A DNA stretch of 64,000 bases. It comes from Deltaproteobacteria bacterium. Lineage in GTDB: Bacteria; Bdellovibrionota; UBA1018; UBA923. The position numbers and the translations under genes were made by a program. The stretch covers positions 3,456-67,455 of the forward strand of contig JACPKS010000044.1 of assembly GCA_016186905.1 (NCBI GenBank), given 5' to 3'. This document shows positions 9,917 through 43,442 of the stretch, in pieces. The first letter of the stretch is position 1; each line of letters begins with the position of its first letter. The notes beneath the pieces are model-generated. The model was given only the letters and a program-made list of their open reading frames with translations, searched no databases and was not told the DNA's origin.

Positions 9917-10195
9917 TCAAAGCTTCAAATACGGCTGCATCTTATCGGCGCCGAACTCTTCAATCGCCGCGAGTGTGTTGTGTGCCTTGCAATAGTGGCG
10001 AAGATTTTCAAACCTGCCCGCGCCTCCTTTCGAAAAAGGCATGATGTGATCGAATTGCAGGCCCGATCTGCTCTCACACCGTCGTTTCGTCGCTGGATCA
10101 ACAAATTCACAACGACCTTCAGACCGGATTTTCACGTTTGTGCGATCTTTTACCGGAATGTATCTCGACTCCGAATTCCGCTCAGCCGGTGTCAA
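9917..10195 (-). CDS. Small HNH endonuclease
   Basis: CEF...C...QFDHIMPFSKGG...NLRHYCKAHN HNH motif. Confidence 0.6.
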   Translation of the reverse strand: MTPAERNSESRYIPVKDRTNVKIRSEGRCEFVDPATKRRCESRSGLQFDHIMPFSKGGAGRFENLRHYCKAHNTLAAIEEFGADKMQPYLKL

Positions 10196-12257: not shown

Positions 12258-13208
12258 TTAAGACTTCGCCACGTCTTCCGTCTTCGGTGCCGCAACCGGC
12301 GTTACGTTTGGTTTTACGTTCGGCGTAACATTCGGCTTCACTGCCGGCTGCGGTGGAACCGCTGGCTTCGGAGAAACCGCTGGCTTCAAAGAAACCGCCG
12401 GGTTCGGAGTCACGGAGGGCTTTACGCTGATCGCGGGCTTCGGATTCGCGCCGGCCTGAATCGCGGGGCGATCGCCACCTTCCCTGCGTGGGCCACGTCC
12501 CGGTCTTCCGCCTGGACGGCCGCCGCCGCCACCTTCACGTCCGCCTCCACCGCCTTCTCTGCCGCCGCCTGGCCCGCCGCGCCCGCGGTCGCGATCACGG
12601 TCGCGCCCACCGCGGCCCTTGCCGCCGCCGCGTCCTTTGCCCCCTTTTCCAAAACGTTTGCCCTCGCGCCGATCATCGCGCCTCGGCTGCGGAACGAAAA
12701 AGTGCTCGAGCAGGTAATATTTCCCGTCTTTTTCGGCAACACCCTCGGGAGCTTTCTCCCCTTCGTTCAGCGTGTATACGACCACGCGCTTGAGGTGCTG
12801 GGGACGGCGCTTCGCGATGTCGATGGCGTTCATGAACATCGCAAGCTTGTCACCCTCGAGTTTGAACGCTTCGCCGATGGCCGCCGCGAGATCGAACGCG
12901 GGAGCCGTGGGCGCTGTCGCCTCAGACGGAATCGGCTCCGTTGCTGCTTCGGCAGCTGGTGGCTCGGCCGTTGGAGTCACAGCCTCAGTCGTTACAGTTT
13001 CGGTCGCCGGAGTTTCGACGGCTGGCGTTTCAACGCTTGTCGGAGGTTTCTGGCCCTTAGGCCCTTTCGGATGCCTGGCGGCCGACTTTTCCGCCTTTTG
13101 GAGCCGCGTGTCGCGCGGCTCGACTTTCACGGGTTTGGGCGTCAATTCCGCCACCTTCTTAAGCGCATCGGCCAATACAAACCCTGAAAATTCCGTGATT
13201 GTTTTCAT
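12258..13208 (-). CDS. Intrinsically disordered protein with an RG/RGG-rich tract and KP(A/N)V(S/T)P hexapeptide repeats
   Basis: A folded-looking N-terminal region, then GKGGKGRGGGKGRGGRDRDRDRGRGGPGGG, then six or more KPxVxP repeats (18-bp tandem units about 12290-12420). Confidence 0.5.
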   Translation of the reverse strand: MKTITEFSGFVLADALKKVAELTPKPVKVEPRDTRLQKAEKSAARHPKGPKGQKPPTSVETPAVETPATETVTTEAVTPTAEPPAAEAATEPIPSEATAPTAPAFDLAAAIGEAFKLEGDKLAMFMNAIDIAKRRPQHLKRVVVYTLNEGEKAPEGVAEKDGKYYLLEHFFVPQPRRDDRREGKRFGKGGKGRGGGKGRGGRDRDRDRGRGGPGGGREGGGGGREGGGGGRPGGRPGRGPRREGGDRPAIQAGANPKPAISVKPSVTPNPAVSLKPAVSPKPAVPPQPAVKPNVTPNVKPNVTPVAAPKTEDVAKS

Positions 13209-13304
13209 GGAAGTATTTATGCTTTATCCGGCGCGAAAAATCAATTCGGCCGGGCTTAAAATTGGGCTAAAGACCCCAAGCCACGTTTCCGATCCCATAT
13301 ATGT

Positions 13305-13757
13305 ATGTTCCGCAGGATGAAGACCAAGGCCTACTTCGTTGCCGGCATTTTGCATGTCGGCATCGGGATGCTCGTATACGGGCTTTCTCAACTCGCCGGT
13401 GATCCCCATGTTCCCCAGGACGCCGTACGCCTTCTGGCGCTCGGCACTTTGGCGACCTACGGAAGCGTTGTGATCGCCGTGGCTTTCGTTTACGTGCCGC
13501 TTGCCCCTTGGATTCGCCGGGCAAGTGCCGTCGCGAACTGGCGCCGCATCCTCTGGAAGGAATTGCCGACCATCCTGGCGCTCGTCCCCATCGTCATGGG
13601 CCTCTACAAAATCCTGAAAAAAGCCTGGACTGAGATCAAGGCCGGTCACACCAACGGCCATCTCGATCTTGAAAAAGTGTCGGCCGTCGTCACGCAGGTC
13701 GCGGCCGATACGGAATCGCTTCTCAAAGAACGGCCCGTGAACCAAAAGGCGGCCTAG
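13305..13757 (+). CDS. Hypothetical membrane protein
   Basis: Three to four predicted TM helices. Confidence 0.4.
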   Translation: MFRRMKTKAYFVAGILHVGIGMLVYGLSQLAGDPHVPQDAVRLLALGTLATYGSVVIAVAFVYVPLAPWIRRASAVANWRRILWKELPTILALVPIVMGLYKILKKAWTEIKAGHTNGHLDLEKVSAVVTQVAADTESLLKERPVNQKAA

Positions 13758-14574
13758 AGAATTGCTCGAACTCGGTCGGATCGTGCGCGCAGAACAGCCG
13801 CACCTCGCTGCCGTGGCTCGACAGCAGCTCGCGCAACCGCTCCGCGCTCTCGATACGCGCCTCGTGATCGCAACACGCCACGCGCTGATGCAACTCGAGA
13901 CCCGCGGTGCAACGAGGACGTTTAAGATCCATCTCCGCCCAGTAAAAGAACGCATCGCCCGCGTGAAGAAGCCAGCCCTTGCCGTCTCGCACTGCAACGC
14001 CGGCGTGGCCCGCGGAATGACCCTTGAGCGACACGAGCACGACGCCGTCCGACAAGCCCTCGAGCGCGCCCGCGCAATCCAGTCCAAACCACTTGCCCGC
14101 CGGCTCGTATAATTTCCAGCTCACTTCCAGTCTTCGAAGACGGTGCCCGTACCGCAGCCGATCTTTAGCGGTCGCAAGAGCCACGGCAGCGCGGTGCTCG
14201 TCAGCGAAGACATGAACCGCCGCGCGCGGAAAATCAGCGATGCCGCCGGCGTGATCGACATCGAGATGCGTGAGCGCGATGTGCCGCACGTCCGCGGGAT
14301 TGAATCCAAGACGATTCACTTGAGCCAACGCGGTCTCCGCGGGATCCAACACGGGGCGCGTGAGCTTGCGGAACGCCGCGGGCAAACGAGTGGCATCCTC
14401 GATGTCACGCGCTCCCAGCCCGGTATCGACGAGAACGAGTCCGGCGTTTGTCTCCAATAGCAGGCAGTGGCACACCATGCGCGCCGGAGGACCGTTGATC
14501 AGCAGCCCTCCGACGGGGCAAAGGGTCGCGCAATTGAGGTGATGGATCTTGCGGATTACTTGGTTCTGAACCAT
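13723..14574 (-). CDS. MBL-fold metallo-hydrolase
   Basis: HxHxDH motif (ALTHLDVDHAGG) plus downstream His/Asp ligands. Probable start at MVQNQ. Confidence 0.7.
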   Translation of the reverse strand: MVQNQVIRKIHHLNCATLCPVGGLLINGPPARMVCHCLLLETNAGLVLVDTGLGARDIEDATRLPAAFRKLTRPVLDPAETALAQVNRLGFNPADVRHIALTHLDVDHAGGIADFPRAAVHVFADEHRAAVALATAKDRLRYGHRLRRLEVSWKLYEPAGKWFGLDCAGALEGLSDGVVLVSLKGHSAGHAGVAVRDGKGWLLHAGDAFFYWAEMDLKRPRCTAGLELHQRVACCDHEARIESAERLRELLSSHGSEVRLFCAHDPTEFEQFSRPPFGSRAVL

Positions 14575-14588
14575 GATTTGAAATTCGT

Positions 14589-15179
14589 ATGGATGCAAGA
14601 CTGGCAACCGCGCTGTCTCACGTCGCGCACGACATCCTCTCGTCCAACAGCACCATTAAAAGCCTCGCCGCGCAACTCAAAGGCATCGAGGCATCCGACG
14701 TCATTCTTGACGCCTCCTCTAAAATCCATCGCCTCGCCGGCCGGCTTCAACGGCTTGCGACCGCGCACAAGCTGCTTGAACCTCCTTCTTCCGTCTCAAT
14801 CACTGATCTTGCGGCGATCGCGTCGCATCGTTTCGGAATCACGTGCCACTTCGATAGGCGTTGCGCGCCGGTGGACTGCGCCGTAATCCATCCACTCAAG
14901 CTTCAACAGGTCCTTGAGCTCCTCCGCGAATTATTGGAATCCGCCCGCATGCGCGTCAAAAAACTCGAACTCCGCGGGAACGGCGGAGGCGCGAAGGAAG
15001 AAAACGACGCCGGTGGCGGCGCGCGAGGATTCATCCTCGTTCTGGAATTCGAAAGCGGCGACATGCTCGAGGACTCTCTCTCGCTGCTTCTTTGCGAAGC
15101 ACTGACGGCGTCAATGCGCGGCAAACTTCTGCTCGGCACAGGACAAATTGAGCTTTTCATGCCCGGAAACGCCCGTTAG
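14589..15179 (+). CDS. Hypothetical protein
   Basis: ORF only, codon usage consistent with the neighbours. There is weak resemblance to a histidine-kinase H-box (SHVAHDI). Confidence 0.3.
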   Translation: MDARLATALSHVAHDILSSNSTIKSLAAQLKGIEASDVILDASSKIHRLAGRLQRLATAHKLLEPPSSVSITDLAAIASHRFGITCHFDRRCAPVDCAVIHPLKLQQVLELLRELLESARMRVKKLELRGNGGGAKEENDAGGGARGFILVLEFESGDMLEDSLSLLLCEALTASMRGKLLLGTGQIELFMPGNAR

Positions 15180-15188
15180 ACTTCGGGC

Positions 15189-16253
15189 ATGAAACGAAAT
15201 CTCCTTGTTCTGCTGGCCGGGGTTGTACTCGCATCGTCTCAAGCAAATGCCGCGCTCGCTTCCTTTGCGAGCGTATCGCTCGACGCGCCGTATCCGCCCT
15301 TCAGCGACGACACCGACCTCACGGGCCGCCCTTACGTGCACAAACGCGACGTTCCGCTCGATCTCGTGCCCGATCGCATCGATGTTCTCGACTCTCCGGG
15401 CGCGGAAATCCGCGTCGCGCGCGAAGACCACGGTAAAGTCTTCGACATCGACGGCCTGCGCTTTACCGTCGCGCAAAAAGGCGACCATTGCATCGGAACC
15501 GCGCCGCTCGCCAACCGCTTCTTCGCGGTCGGAAACGGCTCCGAAGCGTATCGTCTGCGCTTTGAGGCGCCTTGCGGAAAATCGCTCGTGCTCTTTTTTC
15601 GTCAAGAAACGGATGGCGGGCAAGCGCTCGGCATCTGGCGCATCGGCTTTCTCGCACAGAAAAAACTTGAAGCCGCGGTCGGACTCGACTTCTGGAAAAG
15701 CCAGATCCGTTTTGTGTGGCCGGCCGAAGGCGATTACTACCAATGGAACACCGTGCACATCACCGGCGGCCACAAATGGGACGTCGTCGGCCACGAGCTC
15801 GGCCATGCGATTTATGATCAAGCCGACATCGGCGTCTTCGGCGGCGGACAGCACTACATCGACCGCTGCTATTCCGGCGCGCTCGCGCTTTCCGAAGGCT
15901 GGGCCTCGTTTTTCTCGGCCTGGCTCTCGGTGGATCTCGCCGACCCGGACGCGAAATTCGAATACATGGTTCCTAGGCGCGCGCCGATCCGCTTCGAGAA
16001 CGTACCCGCCGACGTTTGCATGGGGCCGACGAGCGAGTGGCGCGTGACTGCTTATTTCTGGGATCTGATCGACCTCAACCGCGACGGCGAAGCGCTCACG
16101 GAGCCGTTCGCGCGCCTCTGGGCGGCGTCACGCAACGCACGCTTCCGCGACATGGGTGAAGTCGCGCGCGCGTACGAGCGGGCGGGTCTTGATCCCGTGC
16201 TGCTTAAAACCGTGTGGAATCTGAACTTCGCGGGCGGATTTCGGCGCAGATAG
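15189..16253 (+). CDS. Secreted HExxH zinc-metalloprotease-like protein
   Basis: Signal peptide and VVGHELGHAIYDQ. Confidence 0.55.
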   Translation: MKRNLLVLLAGVVLASSQANAALASFASVSLDAPYPPFSDDTDLTGRPYVHKRDVPLDLVPDRIDVLDSPGAEIRVAREDHGKVFDIDGLRFTVAQKGDHCIGTAPLANRFFAVGNGSEAYRLRFEAPCGKSLVLFFRQETDGGQALGIWRIGFLAQKKLEAAVGLDFWKSQIRFVWPAEGDYYQWNTVHITGGHKWDVVGHELGHAIYDQADIGVFGGGQHYIDRCYSGALALSEGWASFFSAWLSVDLADPDAKFEYMVPRRAPIRFENVPADVCMGPTSEWRVTAYFWDLIDLNRDGEALTEPFARLWAASRNARFRDMGEVARAYERAGLDPVLLKTVWNLNFAGGFRRR

Positions 16254-36605: not shown

Positions 36606-37967
36606 ATTCTCAGGCAAGAATTCGACCGAATATGCAGGCACCTGCACCAGATCGAATCTGAGCCTGGTTCCGGGATCAATCTTATAAGCAACTCTGTTTA
36701 TGTCGTGCTCTTGAAAGTTGCTGAGATTAAAATTCACCGCGAGATCGGTCTTATGCGTGCGCACGAACTGGTAGAGTGATTTAAGCGACCCGATTTTTTT
36801 AGATTTTACCTCGATCGGCATGATTTCCCCTTTGTGCTGGATCACGAAATCAATCTCGGCTGCGCCCCGCTTCTTGTTGTTCAACCAGAAGTACAGCTCA
36901 GGTTCCATGTCCGGGCCTTGAAAATAGGCCAAATGTTGCGCGATGAACTGCTCGCTGACCTTTCCCTTAAACGACTCCATGCGATCGTTCAAAATATCGT
37001 CGAAGTCGATTCCGGAAAGGCATGTCATGAGGCCCACATCCAGGAAATAAAGTTTGAAAACGCTTTCGTCCCTTTGAGCCTTGATCGGAAGCTCCGTGGC
37101 ATTCGTATGATTCGCGCGATGCACGACTCTTGCCTGGCATAAAAGCTCGATCGCTTTTTTTACGTCATTCGTCTTGTCGTCCCTGGAAATCTCGGAATAT
37201 TTGGCGAGGTTTCCGGCGCACATCGCGGCATATTCCATGACTTTCGGAAGACGCGCGGTTTGCGCCCTGGTCGCGTATTTTGAAAAATCGGCCTTGTACG
37301 TGTCGATGATTCCCCGCTGGATCCTTCTCGTCTCCCGCAAGTCACTTGTTTCAAGGTAAGTTTTGATCGCGGCCGGCATCCCGCCGACGAAAAGATACGT
37401 TTTATAATATTGCACAGCTTTCGCGTGCAAGGCTTCTGAAGGATTTTTTTTGTGCCCGACCTCGATCCACTCGATGAGTTTTTCCTCTTTGACGGCTTGC
37501 AGGTATTCAACAAAAGTCATGGGTCCCAGATGATGGAATTCGACTCTTCCGACCGGCATCGAGAATTCCTGATCGTTCAGGGTGAACTCCAGAAGCGATC
37601 CCGCTGCGATCACCGCGATATCGTGATGCTTCTCGTAGAAATACCTAAGGCAGCTCACGGCCTTCGGCTGCTCTTGAATTTCATCGATAAAAAGAAGCGT
37701 GTTCGGTTTACCGAGGGAAATTCCGGACAGCGCCTCGATTTCCTTGATGGCTAGACCGATGTCGAAAAAATTTGTCCCAAACTTTTCAAACTGACCGATT
37801 TTCGTCAGTTCAAGATTCAGCTCGCAAAGCTCAAGGCCATTGGCCGCGCAAAAATTTCTGACCAGAGTCGATTTTCCAACCTGTCTTGCCCCCCTTAGAA
37901 TGAGTGGCTTTCTATTATTTTTTGTCCGAAACCATTTGAGAAGGTCTTCCTCAGCAGCTCGCCTCAT
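36591..37967 (-). CDS. AAA+ ATPase, COG1373/DUF4143 family
   Basis: Walker A GARQVGKST, Walker B LLFIDEIQ, and a C-terminal DUF4143-like region. GC is lower than the surroundings. Confidence 0.75.
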   Translation of the reverse strand: MRRAAEEDLLKWFRTKNNRKPLILRGARQVGKSTLVRNFCAANGLELCELNLELTKIGQFEKFGTNFFDIGLAIKEIEALSGISLGKPNTLLFIDEIQEQPKAVSCLRYFYEKHHDIAVIAAGSLLEFTLNDQEFSMPVGRVEFHHLGPMTFVEYLQAVKEEKLIEWIEVGHKKNPSEALHAKAVQYYKTYLFVGGMPAAIKTYLETSDLRETRRIQRGIIDTYKADFSKYATRAQTARLPKVMEYAAMCAGNLAKYSEISRDDKTNDVKKAIELLCQARVVHRANHTNATELPIKAQRDESVFKLYFLDVGLMTCLSGIDFDDILNDRMESFKGKVSEQFIAQHLAYFQGPDMEPELYFWLNNKKRGAAEIDFVIQHKGEIMPIEVKSKKIGSLKSLYQFVRTHKTDLAVNFNLSNFQEHDINRVAYKIDPGTRLRFDLVQVPAYSVEFLPENSLQP

Positions 37968-38136
37968 ATCAAGATCTTAGCATAAATCGTATAAATAAGG
38001 GTATCTGTTTTAGACTATTATATTACTAATAAGGATGGCTGTTAAGCACCATTCGCGAGGAATCAGAGTTCAAATTTATCTTAAGGCATTGATATTACTT
38101 ATTTTATCAATCCAGCGACCGCGCAGAATTTCTAGG

Positions 38137-38400
38137 TCATTTCTGATAACGCAAGGCGCTCAGCCGCTTGGCTTTCGCGACGAGTTTCTTGAGCGGAAGT
38201 GGGGGCTCGTTTTTCAAATGCGCCATGAGCTGAACGAGAAGCTCCTTTTGAAATTTCAAGATTTCCGCGTGAACGACTCTCGCGCTTTTGCCGGCGTCGG
38301 TGGAAAAATCACAGGCCGATACCGACGGGCTCGTGCCGGCAATACTCAGCATGAGCGTCTACGCGGTGATGACCGTGGCGCGGGAATCAAGGGGATCCGG
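38137..38400 (-). pseudogene. Decayed duplicate of the abiEii 3' end
   Basis: About 85-90% nucleotide identity to 31930-32170, beginning exactly at the abiEii stop. Only a 71-aa ORF remains. Confidence 0.6.
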
Positions 38401-38442
38401 CATGAGCATGAGCTGCGGGTTCCGCCAGAGCTCCGTCCGCCC

Positions 38443-41400
38443 TTAATTGGCTCTCTTCTTCCGCAACATCTTCGCGCAACCGGCGTATTTCGTCTGCAGC
38501 AGCCGGGCGAACTCGTCCACGCCGTCGATGTAGCCGTTCAGATTCTCGGTCCATTTTACAAAATCGCGTATCAACGGGACCCCCGCCTTCGCGCGAAGAA
38601 GCCGCAATTCATCGGCGCTGAAATGATCCGCTCCTCCCATGTTGAGGAGCTCGACATATGCGCGCGCAAGAACCGGCGTGAGGCGGGCCGTCTTGCCGCG
38701 ATCCATGTCGAGCAGAAGACGGTGCAGCGATTTTTCAAGAATCTCCGGGCTGTCAACCTGAGGTTTACGCGCAAGCTTGACGAGTTTCAAAATCCCCTCT
38801 TCGAGCTCCTCGGCGCTCCACTCAGCGCTTATGAGCTCGTCGATGTATTCTTGGCCGTCCCATTTGTTATGTTTCTTGTCGTGAATGACCAGCCAGTCGA
38901 ACACGACCTTTTTCTCTTCGGGACTCAATCTGGTGGCGAGTCGAGTGATATCAGTTTCGTAGCTGTCGAACACTTGAGAAGCGTTTTGGCCAAACTCTTC
39001 AAGCGCCTTGCGCAAAAGCGCGAATTGGGCGGCTTCGTAATCGTGTAATATCGCGCGGAGGATTCTTCCGCGATCGGTGTCCGAGCCGACCTTCGCCGCG
39101 GCTTCGATGAGCTTGTCCAGGACGATTGATGCAATGGGACTTGCCGCGATCGCTTCTCGCTTTTGCTGGACGAAACTCGTGAAGGCCTCACGTTTCCCGC
39201 TCCTGGCAAGCTCGTCAATAAAAAGAATCAGCCGGGTGGAGTCGTTTAGATCAACGAGCGGCAAATCGTGCTTCATGAACACCCACCTGCTCATGCGCAG
39301 GAGCTTCGCGCGCGTTTCCCCGCCGACTTCATCGACGAGCTCGAGGATGGCGCGGTCAATGCTCGTAAGCGCATCCTGATGGCTGCTGAAGTCGAGAAGG
39401 CGCGACACAAACGAAGACCGGCTTCCGCGAAGATCCTCGCGAATCCTTGTCTTGAGCTCATCCTTAAGAGCCGCAGACGCTTCATCTCTGAAAAACAAAT
39501 CATCCGGTTTGATCGGGCCGAGCTGGCCCTTTTGCGCGAGCTGATATGCTTGACGCACATGATTAAACTCCGCGAGCCCGCGGGAAAACTGGTCCGTCGA
39601 GACATCTCCGTACTTAAGATAAAGCTCGGCGGTTTTAGGGTTGATGACAAGCATCTTCGCGACGAGATGCTCAGCGCCATGCGGACTCAACTTTCCCGCC
39701 TGGATTTTTTTCTCGAGCTCAGGCGCGAACTCGTCGGCGAACGGGAGAGCGATCCAGAACATGAAGCAGTCATCCGCATTGGCCGTTCCGAGCATTCCGC
39801 TGAAAATCAATTCCTTAAGTTTCGCCTTGGGTACGAATCGCGCATAAAAAGGGGCAAACGAGTCGATCGGGCTATAAGGGTGGTGCGCGTATTTCGAGAG
39901 CGGGTTTTTCGAGAGCAAGAAACTAGTTGAAACGGTTTCTGAAAGCCACGTGACGAATTTTTCGTCCCAGAACACGGCTCCGAGCTCCGTGCGGAATAAT
40001 GCATCCAGCTCATGCGGGTTGATCCATTTTCCCCGCTCCATCGCGTCGATGAGCCGCGCGCGAAGCCGGGCCTTTTCTTTATCGCTTGCCGCGAGGATCT
40101 TCGCGATCGCGGTCTTGCGAAATTCCGGATAAATAGCCCCTCCACCGTGAAACTCGATTCCACCCAGGAAAAGCAGGTCGAACCATTGCACGGCGTTCAT
40201 GCGCTCCTGAATGAATGGGAACTCAAGAAGCACGCTGACCATCCCATCGGCCGGCACGCCTTTGCTCATGTGCGTGAGTTTGTCGATGAACGCGTCGGCA
40301 AACTCGGCCTGATTCTCGGGATTCACGGCCTTTTTCGAAAACCGCTTGAGCAGTTCGTGTGCGAGTTTGTTTTCTTCATCGGAGCTGGACTTCGTGAAGA
40401 CGATCGCCCTGATTTTTTCGGCGGTGCTGAGCTCAAGGTGTTTGAGTGGATGAGGAAGCGCCAGCCATTCCTCGAGCAGGAATTGCGAGGGCTTGCGCTT
40501 GTGAAGCTCCTTTCGCACGATCTCGGAGATCGCGCGATCCTCGTCGTCGGAGAGGTGCGCGACCCTGCTCGTGATGCGCCGCTTGAGTTTCTCGAGAATC
40601 CCCCGGTCGCCGTCGTCGAGAAGCCTGCCGCCCTGAAGGAGCGCGAAGAACTCGGCAGGACCGATGTTCAGGCTCTCGGGGATGACTTCAAGAGCGTTGC
40701 GATTGAGAAAAATCAGAAAGTCCGTGCCTGCCACAATGAAATCCGCGCCCTCAAGCGCATCGGGTGCGACCTTGTAGCGGATGGTGAGGCCCGTGCCGGC
40801 GGCGCCTTGTCTGCCGATCCTCGTGTAATGGCCGTCGCCGAAACTCGCGGCCTCGCCCGCGTAGCCGTCGCGCGAGATCAGCACGTTGGGCCTTCCCGTC
40901 GTGTCGCGCGTGATCGATTCGTAGGCGATGAAGTCGGAAGTCTCGTGCGCGACGGCGAACTCATCCCACGGAATGTCCATTTTTTTTGCGACGTCGCGGG
41001 CCGTTCTCGCTTTTACGCCTTTCGGAAGTTTCGAACGATCGCCGACACGAAACGAGCGCAGCGGCTCTTTTCCCATCCACCAGGCCACCGATCCTTCGTC
41101 GGTGATGTCGCCGATCTTGGCGAGCTTCCGGCGCAGGCCAAGCGTGTCGAGCGTGTCCATCGCGTACTCGATGTTCACGGCGTGTTTGACGAGCTTGGCT
41201 GCATTGCCGCGGTCGGCGAGCCAGCCGCGCGCCCAGCCGCTCCAGGAAGGCGGATCGCGAACGGGATCGAAAGCGCCGATGATTCCGCGGATGGGGACGA
41301 GGTCTTCGTCGCGCGTCTTGAGCTCGTATTGAAAAGCCTTCGTGAGGTAGCGGATCACCGAGAAAATCGGCGGATTATCGCCCGCCTTGAAGCGCGACGT

Positions 41401-42132
41401 CGTTTCGTGGCGTTTTGAGAAGTAATAATGCAATTTCCCTTCGGCGGCGTCGCGCAGGAAGAACGGGTCCTTCTGGTTTTTCCAATCCCGCAGATCCCGC
41501 ACGATCGCTTCGCCGCGCGGAGAATCGGTTAGCTCGATCATTCCGGTCGAGTTCGAATCGGTGTGCTGATCCAAAAAATCCGGATTATTGAGCAGCGCCT
41601 GCTTTACTCCCCGGTCCTGCCTGAGCAGGCGCACTTCCCATTCCGACTTCGAACCTTGCAAATGCGCGAGTTTGGATTTGATCAGAGTTTCCAGCTGCTC
41701 GGCTTGCTCCGGCGTGCCGTCGACGACAAGATCGGCGTCCTGGGTTGAGCGGTAGATATTCGTGAAGTCGTAATCAAAGCGCGACTCGATGAAGCGCTTG
41801 TCGCCGCCTTTGCGCAGCAGATCCCATTTCACGTAGTGCGCGTATCCGGCGGCCGTGCCGCCGAAGAGCCAGACGCGCAGACCGAGCTCGCGCGCGGCTT
41901 CGCGGATGATCTTGAATTCGAACACGCGGTCGCGGTTTTTCGCGATTTCGGCCGCGAGCCGCCCGGTCTCGACGGGCGCGTAGCCGGTCTGGGCCGAAGG
42001 ATTTTTCGCATGCTCAGGAGCTTTCGCGTGCGCTGGCGCTTTCGCGTGCGCGGTGGCGATGATCGCGGCGACGAAAAGAGCAAACCCTGCCGCAAACAGC
42101 CTCTTTTTAGCCTGAAAAGAATGGACGATCAT
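38443..42132 (-). CDS. Giant secreted paralog of the 33252-35858 protein, with a divergent or degenerate ART-like core
   Basis: Signal peptide MIVHSFQAKKRLFAAGFALFVAAIIATAHA. It shares the N-terminal GG..A.GY...DAD-type domain and an alpha-helical C-terminus. No intact HG[ST]/E motif was found by eye. Confidence 0.45.
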   Translation of the reverse strand: MIVHSFQAKKRLFAAGFALFVAAIIATAHAKAPAHAKAPEHAKNPSAQTGYAPVETGRLAAEIAKNRDRVFEFKIIREAARELGLRVWLFGGTAAGYAHYVKWDLLRKGGDKRFIESRFDYDFTNIYRSTQDADLVVDGTPEQAEQLETLIKSKLAHLQGSKSEWEVRLLRQDRGVKQALLNNPDFLDQHTDSNSTGMIELTDSPRGEAIVRDLRDWKNQKDPFFLRDAAEGKLHYYFSKRHETTSRFKAGDNPPIFSVIRYLTKAFQYELKTRDEDLVPIRGIIGAFDPVRDPPSWSGWARGWLADRGNAAKLVKHAVNIEYAMDTLDTLGLRRKLAKIGDITDEGSVAWWMGKEPLRSFRVGDRSKLPKGVKARTARDVAKKMDIPWDEFAVAHETSDFIAYESITRDTTGRPNVLISRDGYAGEAASFGDGHYTRIGRQGAAGTGLTIRYKVAPDALEGADFIVAGTDFLIFLNRNALEVIPESLNIGPAEFFALLQGGRLLDDGDRGILEKLKRRITSRVAHLSDDEDRAISEIVRKELHKRKPSQFLLEEWLALPHPLKHLELSTAEKIRAIVFTKSSSDEENKLAHELLKRFSKKAVNPENQAEFADAFIDKLTHMSKGVPADGMVSVLLEFPFIQERMNAVQWFDLLFLGGIEFHGGGAIYPEFRKTAIAKILAASDKEKARLRARLIDAMERGKWINPHELDALFRTELGAVFWDEKFVTWLSETVSTSFLLSKNPLSKYAHHPYSPIDSFAPFYARFVPKAKLKELIFSGMLGTANADDCFMFWIALPFADEFAPELEKKIQAGKLSPHGAEHLVAKMLVINPKTAELYLKYGDVSTDQFSRGLAEFNHVRQAYQLAQKGQLGPIKPDDLFFRDEASAALKDELKTRIREDLRGSRSSFVSRLLDFSSHQDALTSIDRAILELVDEVGGETRAKLLRMSRWVFMKHDLPLVDLNDSTRLILFIDELARSGKREAFTSFVQQKREAIAASPIASIVLDKLIEAAAKVGSDTDRGRILRAILHDYEAAQFALLRKALEEFGQNASQVFDSYETDITRLATRLSPEEKKVVFDWLVIHDKKHNKWDGQEYIDELISAEWSAEELEEGILKLVKLARKPQVDSPEILEKSLHRLLLDMDRGKTARLTPVLARAYVELLNMGGADHFSADELRLLRAKAGVPLIRDFVKWTENLNGYIDGVDEFARLLQTKYAGCAKMLRKKRAN

Positions 42133-42287
42133 GCCTTCTGTATCGTCTTTGCCGGCGCCGATCAGGATGGGCAAAAGATGATCAGCAAGAGTTTCTTTGC
42201 GCGCAAACGGGCGTTGCCCGGTTGAACCAATTCAGGGGTTATCGCGACACCGCGCGACACCGGCGGTCACTCGTTCGGCTGGTAGCT

Positions 42288-43442
42288 TCAGTTCGGAAAA
42301 CTCTTAAGCAGCGCGGGCAGGCCCTCGAGCCCAGTGTAATATAAGTCCCTCATTCTCCTCGCGGTTTTCTTTCGCGCTCCATTTTCATCCGAGGCCACGA
42401 CAATGACCGGTGATTGCGGGTACATATCCCGGAACACCGAAACGGAATTTTCGGAGAATTGACGGGACTTCCATTTGCATTCGATGGCGATGGGCCGCGC
42501 TCCAGCCATGCCCTGAACGACAAAATCCACCTCATGCGCGGCCTTATCCCTCCAAAAATGTATTTTTTCCGGCGGTACGAGCGAAAGCATTTCATTCAAG
42601 ACGAAGTGCTCCCACAGAGGCCCGCAGTCGCTTTCAGTCAGACTCGTGCGGCCATGAAAATAATTGATGAACCCGGTATCGAAAAAATAGACTTTGGGAG
42701 CCGCGACGATTTCACGCGCGGGATTCGAGGAGAACGGACGCAGGATCACCGCGGCATGCGCGATTTCCAGAGCTCCGAGGTAATTCATGACTGTCTGGCG
42801 GGACAGCTCGCATGGAGCGGTCAGCGACTGGGCCTCGAAAAGCCCTCCGCTCTGCAACGCCAGCAGCTCCATGAGCTTCATGAAGCCGTACCTTTTTTCG
42901 ATCTTGAAGACTTCTTGGATGTCTTTGGCCCAAAAGCCATCGATCCAATCACGATAGGCCGCCTCATCGAAAGCGGGCGACAGCAGAAACGGCGGCAAAC
43001 CGCCCTTAAGCAGCCGCTCACGAAGGTTTCCATGCCCGAGCGCCGACAGGTCAGCGGCATTGCATGGCGTAAGTTTTACGACCCGCTTGCGGTCCGTGAG
43101 CGTGTCGCTGAACTTCGCGGTGGCAGCCAGGGTCGATGACCCAGTGGCGACGATTTTCAAGCGCGGGTAGTGATCCGCGGCGATTTTCAGCACTGCCGAC
43201 GGATTCGCGATCTTGTGGACCTCGTCGAGCACGATCAAGCGCCCATGACGGCTGTCAAAAAATTCCTCCGGATCGTCGAGAAGCCGTTGGATGCGCGGGA
43301 GCTCGCAATCAAAGTAGTCCACGTCTCCGAGCTGGCGGCAGAGGGTGGTCTTACCGGATCTGCGCACCCCCGTGAACCAAACGACGTTTTTTCTCAAAAG
43401 CGCCTGATTGATTCTTTCCAGCCAGAAATCTCTTTTAACCAC
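42288..43442 (-). CDS. AAA+ ATPase, COG1373/DUF4143 family (second copy, diverged)
   Basis: Walker A GVRRSGKTT, Walker B LIVLDEVHK and a DUF4143-like C-terminus. It lies 113 bp upstream of the giant paralog on the same strand. Confidence 0.7.
   Translation of the reverse strand: MVKRDFWLERINQALLRKNVVWFTGVRRSGKTTLCRQLGDVDYFDCELPRIQRLLDDPEEFFDSRHGRLIVLDEVHKIANPSAVLKIAADHYPRLKIVATGSSTLAATAKFSDTLTDRKRVVKLTPCNAADLSALGHGNLRERLLKGGLPPFLLSPAFDEAAYRDWIDGFWAKDIQEVFKIEKRYGFMKLMELLALQSGGLFEAQSLTAPCELSRQTVMNYLGALEIAHAAVILRPFSSNPAREIVAAPKVYFFDTGFINYFHGRTSLTESDCGPLWEHFVLNEMLSLVPPEKIHFWRDKAAHEVDFVVQGMAGARPIAIECKWKSRQFSENSVSVFRDMYPQSPVIVVASDENGARKKTARRMRDLYYTGLEGLPALLKSFPN

Follow-up and report, generated by a model that had tools for sequence, protein, structure and literature searches.

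A putatively exported protein family of Bdellovibrionota predicted to join a nucleotidyltransferase fold to a PARP-like domain with an invariant His-Tyr-Asp set

Here we describe a gene from the Deltaproteobacteria bacterium assembly GCA_016186905.1 (Bdellovibrionota), located at 38443..42174 on the reverse strand of a 64,000-nt stretch of contig JACPKS010000044.1 (positions 3,456 to 67,455), hereafter referred to as the window. The gene is intact and constrained, and its product (the target) is predicted to consist of an export signal, a nucleotidyltransferase domain resembling class II CCA-adding enzymes, a PARP-like domain and a fast-evolving C-terminal half. The first-pass annotation of the window had suggested that the target may be a degenerate ADP-ribosyltransferase or pseudo-enzyme, one half of a pair with another giant paralog, of 868 aa, encoded at 33252..35858 on the same strand (the neighbour). 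We consider it fairly probable that the target is instead an intact, exported, modular protein with putative nucleotidyltransferase and PARP-like activities, that is, a secreted two-enzyme effector, and we place less confidence in a specific effector role than in this overall picture.

The target is encoded by a single uninterrupted open reading frame (ORF) and represents a real gene. As listed, the ORF runs from a TTG at 42174 to a stop codon at 38443-38445, and no support was found for the TTG as a start. The gene call of the ortholog in a related metagenome-assembled genome (MAG; locus L078) begins at the position equivalent to 42132, and the ATG at 42132 is the likely start as judged from the sequence, giving a coding sequence of 38443-42132 (-) for a protein of 1,229 aa; residue numbers below count from this Met. 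Residues 1-30 (MIVHSFQAKKRLFAAGFALFVAAIIATAHA; 42043..42132, -) read as a Sec-type signal peptide with a cleavage-like site after AHA, cut before K, and are followed by an Ala/Pro/Lys low-complexity linker (aa 31-54; 41971..42042, -) outside the conserved module. Signal peptides were called by a simple test, a hydrophobic N-terminal segment preceded by K/R, with internal windows as a control. Such a segment was present in 92 of 120 target-family members (77%) and in 23 of 32 members of the neighbour family (72%), and in 0 of 120 control windows; lipobox-like sites accompany some of the signal peptides of the family.

The first domain (aa 55-375; 41008..41970, -) is predicted to fold like the head and neck regions of class II CCA-adding enzymes and poly(A) polymerases. 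The AlphaFold model of the catalytic module of the target had a predicted local distance difference test (pLDDT) score of 94.3 and a predicted template modelling (pTM) score of 0.92, and that of the neighbour module had scores of 90.6 and 0.89, respectively. For both models, Foldseek retrieved the structures 5hc9, 4wbz, 3h39, 1vfg, 6qxn and 3wfq (E from 4e-4, probability 1.0), with alignments to CCA enzymes of about 290 columns, 10-15% identity and target-normalised template modelling (TM) scores of 0.31-0.41. The best matches in the viral library BFVD were tRNA nucleotidyltransferases of phages and a poly(A) polymerase from a giant virus. The expected motif residues are in place in the target, with G91-G92 as the nucleotidyltransferase motif (41857..41862, -, codons checked; Gly in 219/219 and 217/219 aligned members), D132-A-D134 as the putative metal-binding DxD (41731..41739, -; Asp in 218/219 at both positions) and E166 as the likely third carboxylate (41635-41637, -; Glu in 212 members and Asp in 5), a role suggested by its position on the next strand in the model. 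At least 97% of 223 target-family members retain the GG, the DxD and E166. By predicted fold, the first domain is thus a class II CCA-adding-enzyme-like nucleotidyltransferase of the Pol-beta type with GG...DxD...E intact, and not the targeting or NAD-related module that had been proposed for it.

The target departs from standard CCA enzymes: identity to them is only 10-15%, no Pfam match was obtained, the GG and the DxD are about 40 residues apart and the body and tail are replaced. The predicted head and neck fold and the succession of GG, DxD and a later carboxylate are shared with class II CCA enzymes and poly(A) polymerase, whereas the RRD and EDxxR nucleotide-selection motifs were not recognised and a signal peptide is present. 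The spacing from GG to DxD is about 40 residues in the target family and about 50 in both of the other subfamilies described below, and the compact motif A, in which GGxVRD is closely followed by DxD, was not found. In the model the tRNA-binding helical body and tail are absent, and a beta-rich PARP-like domain follows the neck instead. Pfam and NCBIfam scans gave no significant match anywhere in the protein, PolyA_pol (PF01743) included, and a PDB sequence search with the target-family profile yielded no CCA enzyme, only insignificant matches to helical repeats.

The second domain (aa 376-500; 40633..41007, -) is predicted to be PARP-like, of the ADP-ribosyltransferase fold, with a His-Tyr-Asp set and no Glu at the third position. 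This assignment follows from its profile alignment with the corresponding region of the neighbour family (hhalign, 95.6%), from the PARP matches of that region in PDB and from weak Pfam PARP matches. A profile of the PARP-like region, built from the neighbour family and the third subfamily described below, retrieved only PARP catalytic domains among the best 60 of 102 PDB matches (E from 0.0027), including PARP1, 2, 4, 10, 12, 14 and 16 and tankyrase-2, and the alignment sets LYHGT...G.G.Y on LWHGS...GKGIY of PARP1, i.e. on H862 and Y896. Weak Pfam matches to PARP were obtained for 11 of 32 neighbour-family members, and one member reached the curated cut-off (26.7 bits). The order of secondary structure elements in the second domain of the target is the same as in the model of the neighbour.

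The residues at the PARP positions are invariant among the aligned members of the target family. H396, in VAHET at the end of beta1 (40945..40947, -; His in 217/217), corresponds to H862 of PARP1 and aligns with H409 of the neighbour and with LYHGT of the third subfamily. Y436, in GDGHYT on beta3 (40825..40827, -; Tyr in 216/216), corresponds to Y896 of PARP1 and aligns with Y442 of the neighbour. D464, in ADFIVA directly before beta5 (40741..40743, -; Asp in 217/217), aligns with D510, and N477, an Asn after beta6 (40702..40704, -; Asn in 217/217), aligns with N521. F465 is likewise found in 217/217 members, and E486 is a further invariant Glu. Both models place the Asp directly before beta5, as D-FIVA in the target and D-VIVH in the neighbour, where PARPs carry E-YIVY. 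The alignments agree with the first-pass annotation in taking VAHETS and ADFIVAG as the segments that match the PARP His and acidic positions. A conserved helical segment (aa 501-575; 40408..40632, -), defined by the alignment and the model, closes the module.

These counts bear directly on the idea that the target is a pseudo-enzyme, the inactivated half of an effector pair. In its favour, the third position is occupied by Asp and not Glu, the His motif reads H-E-T and not H-G-[ST], and the Pfam scan of the target gave no match to the ADP-ribosyltransferase models PF00644 (PARP), PF15633 (Tox-ART-HYD1) and PF18760 (ART-PolyVal). The statement that a complete His-Tyr-Glu set is lacking is correct in that no Glu occupies the third position, but His, Tyr and Asp occur in all aligned members (217, 216 and 217), so that the family invariably has Asp here and the missing Glu is no evidence of decay. 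Nor does the neighbour, presumed to be the active partner, carry a different set. Among the 156 members of its family, H409 is conserved in 155, Y442 in 153, and D510 and N521 in all 156. The Glu of its QEY motif, E506, was considered as a catalytic residue and rejected, being Glu in only 61 of the 156 members and located in a helix of the model. Both proteins thus carry His-Tyr-Asp, and neither can be regarded as a decayed counterpart of the other. Among Asp-bearing enzymes of this kind is the rifampin ADP-ribosyltransferase Arr. In the H-Y-[EDQ] clade of ADP-ribosyltransferases, Asp is a known occupant of this position, and toxin domains with H-Y-D, for example Tox-ART-HYD1 and HYD2, form an established class (PMC3482391). 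With selection also acting against change in the domain, as quantified below, the pseudo-enzyme explanation is in our view essentially excluded by the conservation.

To estimate selection, we compared the target with its L078 ortholog, to which it is 83.7% identical at the nucleotide level over the whole gene, and calculated the ratio of non-synonymous to synonymous substitutions (dN/dS) by the Nei-Gojobori method. The dS values were about 0.36 throughout. The dN/dS ratio was 0.12 over the whole catalytic module (nucleotidyltransferase domain, 0.09; PARP-like domain, 0.25) and 0.49 over the C-terminal half. The catalytic module is thus under strong purifying constraint, and non-synonymous change in the C-terminal half is about four times faster. 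The first-pass annotation, which had called for such an analysis, had also raised the possibility of a rapidly diversifying catalytic region; the catalytic part is the most conserved portion of the protein, and it is the C-terminal half that changes quickly.

This C-terminal half (aa 576-1229; 38446..40407, -) contains no recognisable domain by Pfam and NCBIfam, and no internal repeats were detected by self-BLAST. Among the 8,000 best word-sharing candidates from a collection of 5.8 billion proteins, its 654 residues had a single homolog, the L078 ortholog. The latter was called as two genes of 558 aa and 643 aa, and stands as two fragments in public protein sets because of a run of N. We considered whether the target is a fusion of two genes, and rejected this since the split in L078 (at about 9930-10000) coincides with the run of N, a scaffold gap. 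All indels between the two orthologs are multiples of three, except for a 23-nt gap at the run of N.

The main rival explanation accepts an intact protein and makes the nucleotidyltransferase its sole catalytic centre, acting for example in RNA 3'-tailing or protein nucleotidylylation, with the PARP-like domain as a ligand- or substrate-binding accessory that does not transfer ADP-ribose and replaces the body and tail of CCA enzymes. The domain does occupy the place of the body and tail in class II CCA enzymes, the model shows both domains as a single rigid unit (pTM 0.92), direct matches to ADP-ribosyltransferase folds are weak (E 2.6 and E 0.64) and the nucleotidyltransferase domain has the lowest dN/dS, 0.09. 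Yet the invariant residues of the second domain are exactly those at the NAD-site positions of PARPs, together with the acidic position. Moreover, one family member (locus L075, 13589-15937, +) has a degenerate nucleotidyltransferase motif, with G-L, P-x-H and a Met for the third carboxylate, and retains H-Y-D-N intact, which suggests that the PARP-like domain can be kept, and can work, alone. An accessory role for the domain seems unlikely to us.

The relationship between the target and the neighbour could be established only with profiles and structure models. Pairwise BLASTP gave a non-significant match (E 0.057), and a hidden Markov model of the target family did not significantly match the neighbour sequence. 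For comparisons with hhalign we used deep, trimmed alignments of 187 sequences from the target family and 156 from the neighbour family; trimming and depth were needed, as alignments that included the variable C-termini gave only 20-30%. The whole modules aligned collinearly with a probability of 85.8% (E 5.4e-6, 360 columns), the second domains with 95.6% (E 1.3e-8, 58 columns) and the first domains with 48% (E 1.8e-4, 163 columns), while the cross-domain controls gave 0.7% and 3% (E 0.076 and 0.015; 8 and 62 columns). The element order is identical in the two AlphaFold models. The neighbour combines a signal peptide, the same predicted nucleotidyltransferase fold as in the target (G115-G116, D166-x-D168) and a PARP-like domain (H409, Y442, D510, N521), and its C-terminus is helical.

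The target family and the neighbour family are connected by a third subfamily. It is represented by two tandem genes at locus L049 (12529-15444 and 17097-19802, both +) that adjoin a target-family gene, and has a more canonical nucleotidyltransferase motif (YGGTSRD...DADII) together with LYHGT...GLYAV...DIL...N in the second domain. It aligned with the target family at 91% (E 1.1e-6, over 211 columns that begin in the neck of the first domain and extend into the second) and with the neighbour family at 96% (E 3.5e-9), and a local jackhmmer search seeded with it pulled in both other families. Profile-profile comparison, the bridging subfamily and structure prediction together indicate that the target and the neighbour are distant paralogs that belong to two subfamilies of a single superfamily and share their domain order.

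The paralogy suggested by the first-pass annotation is hence upheld in a broad sense by the profile alignment for which it had asked, and so is a shared N-terminal domain, given that both models match CCA-adding enzymes. Its residue pairings fared less well. The strings LFGGTAAGYAHY, DADLVVDG, VAHETS, ADFIVAG and IRYK are all present in the target. DADLVVDG had been set against DIDATEV of the neighbour, and the alignments pair it with SDFDVLIKS. The supposedly shared IRYK is a chance 4-mer at non-equivalent positions: that of the target lies in beta4 and aligns with LTLE of the neighbour, and that of the neighbour follows the last strand, aligns with LEVIPES of the target and is not conserved in its own family.

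The target belongs to a large, unannotated family that is restricted to Bdellovibrionota. At least 454 homologs, with E-values down to 1e-221, were found among the best 8,000 candidates of the 5.8-billion-protein collection, and every homolog named by organism came from a Bdellovibrionota-type MAG. The homologs align only with residues 59-570 of the query, the N-terminal 40-50%, at about 50% identity. Beyond this region the C-termini vary across the family, and include a repeated helical unit (L..P.W..HPE), HEAT and ankyrin repeats and, in some members, an FGE-sulfatase domain (E 3.6e-33). For two homologs, P0003 and P0005, the precomputed annotation gives PF26098, which was not recovered in a local Pfam scan of both. 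All family members with an NCBI name are called hypothetical. The neighbour family comprised 526, 349 and 281 clusters at E-value thresholds of 1e-3, 1e-10 and 1e-30 in a library of 1.84 billion proteins; as every one of the best 150 matches was a close relative (E of 1e-122 or lower), this search gives the size of the family and no remote links.

We also scanned 185,579 genomes, one per species, with a sequence pattern, and obtained 107 relatives at 77 loci in 15 assemblies, all of which are MAGs. The labels of most of these assemblies are Bdellovibrionia, Bacteriovoracaceae, Pseudobdellovibrionaceae, Oligoflexia or Bdellovibrionota; those of two are no more specific than Proteobacteria and Deltaproteobacteria. 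Amplification has brought the family to about 20 loci per genome (18-19 in single MAGs), often in tandem arrays. Such arrays consist of up to four abutting genes with no ORF between them, and the window holds one copy of each of the two families. No neighbouring gene family was present at more than 6 of the 77 loci. A conserved partner, immunity or chaperone gene was accordingly ruled out, and without a recurrent neighbour there is no obvious immunity partner.

These features also bear on a further alternative, that the proteins serve the producer itself at the surface or in the periplasm, for example in envelope functions, nucleotide scavenging or sensing, and that their C-termini fit endogenous partners. 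Signal peptides, some of them lipobox-like, would suit such a role, as would the lack of linked secretion-system genes and of conserved neighbours. Against it, nucleoside triphosphates (NTPs) and NAD+ are not known to be available in the periplasm. Massive expansion within one lineage, tandem arrays and rapidly changing C-termini that carry HEAT and ankyrin repeats also typically mark proteins that interact with other organisms. We regard a function confined to the producer as quite improbable.

In the favoured reading of a secreted two-enzyme effector, the Sec signal peptide is followed by a rigid catalytic module of about 520 residues with two domains, and the C-terminal region of about 650 residues probably decides what the enzyme binds. 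The protein would be secreted and act on molecules of another cell, such as prey or host, where the nucleotidyltransferase would use NTP and the PARP-like domain NAD+; the modified target might be a nucleic acid or a protein picked by the C-terminal region. Several observations weigh against this picture. The same absence of NTP and NAD+ from the periplasm means that an effector would need a further export step beyond Sec. All family members come from MAGs, and no curated Pfam or NCBIfam family matches the target. When the PARP-like regions of 20 target-family members were searched directly, Pfam returned one match to Tox-ART-HYD1 (E 0.17) and the PDB profile search was empty. The whole-module models gave only weak Foldseek matches to PARPs, a phage PARP domain for the target (E 2.6, TM 0.45) and PARP2 for the neighbour (E 0.64), in lists dominated by the nucleotidyltransferase domain. 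Homology of the nucleotidyltransferase domains of the target and the neighbour reached only 48% by profile, and the case for it is carried mostly by the fold prediction and by the bridging subfamily. Finally, the dN/dS ratios derive from one pair of orthologs only.

A bolder version of the effector reading is that a so far undescribed superfamily of exported bifunctional enzymes, unique to Bdellovibrionota and with at least three subfamilies and many hundreds of clusters, in which the nucleotidyltransferase and H-Y-D unit acts jointly on one substrate, constitutes a major effector arsenal of this phylum. ADP-ribosylation of an RNA or tRNA end, or of a protein, might then be followed by nucleotidylation, and the hypervariable C-termini would retarget this chemistry to differing prey or host molecules. 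We offer this version as tentative and consider it rather doubtful.

Comparison with known systems places the second domain near the PARP-like H-Y-[EDQ] clade (PARP1/2/10/14/16, tankyrase, HYD1/HYD2). The target shares with this clade the His in H-x-[ST] at the end of beta1, the G-x-G-x-Y on beta3, the acidic residue directly before beta5 and the order of elements, and with the HYD toxin domains the use of Asp for Glu. It differs in having H-E-T where the clade has H-G-[ST], in the additional invariant N477 and E486, in the lack of a significant match to an ADP-ribosyltransferase model and in the fusion of the domain downstream of a nucleotidyltransferase, instead of its occurring alone or at the C-terminus of a toxin. 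The SidE family of Legionella effectors, which are delivered by type IV secretion, combines an R-S-E mono-ADP-ribosyltransferase with a phosphodiesterase in one protein. The target family may resemble SidE in pairing an ADP-ribosyltransferase fold with a second nucleotide-processing domain and a helical C-terminus in a set of paralogous effectors, whereas it has H-Y-D, a Pol-beta nucleotidyltransferase and a Sec signal, and no sequence or fold match to SidE was found. Polymorphic and secreted toxins (PMC3482391) are similar as exported multidomain proteins with ADP-ribosyltransferase or nucleotidyltransferase domains, present in multiple copies with variable regions. The polarity is reversed in the target, however, with a constant enzyme module at the N-terminus and a variable C-terminus, and the target family is without RHS, HINT, PAAR or other trafficking modules and without an adjacent immunity gene.

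The surroundings of the gene differ from those of its ortholog. Relative to L078, the window has an insertion of about 8.5 kb directly downstream of the target (29939-38442), with a GC content of 0.54 against about 0.60; in L078, the ortholog borders at its 3' end directly on an M50 peptidase gene. The insertion encodes a PD40 beta-propeller protein, a PemK/MazF toxin, an AbiEii nucleotidyltransferase toxin with a helix-turn-helix partner, the 868-aa neighbour, a 206-aa membrane protein and a DUF4143 AAA ATPase. A 210-nt direct repeat with 90% identity (31938-32147 and 38160-38369) duplicates the 3' end of the AbiEii-like gene just past the stop codon of the target, and may be a scar left by this insertion or by recombination. 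Genes for ATPases with AAA_14 and DUF4143 domains are located on both sides of the target (36591-37967 and 42288-43442, both -), and the upstream one, at 42288-43442, is absent from the syntenic position in L078. Conversely, L078 contains another target-family member two genes downstream of the ortholog (13172-15505, +) that has no counterpart at that place in the window.

Both folds are known. No account of their fusion, of the H-Y-D...N signature found here, of the export signal or of the phylum-restricted amplification was found in the libraries and literature searched, and full-text literature searches returned no description of this architecture. Bdellovibrionota is a phylum known for predation, and a rigidly conserved catalytic module combined with fast-changing C-termini is a typical pattern in proteins that interact with other organisms. 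Should the enzymes be active, the family would represent a new class of candidate effectors for predation or host interaction and a test case for the coupling of ADP-ribosyl and nucleotidyl transfer. If the two domains do act jointly on one substrate, it would amount to an unrecognised effector arsenal that uses a new combination of nucleotide-transfer chemistries.

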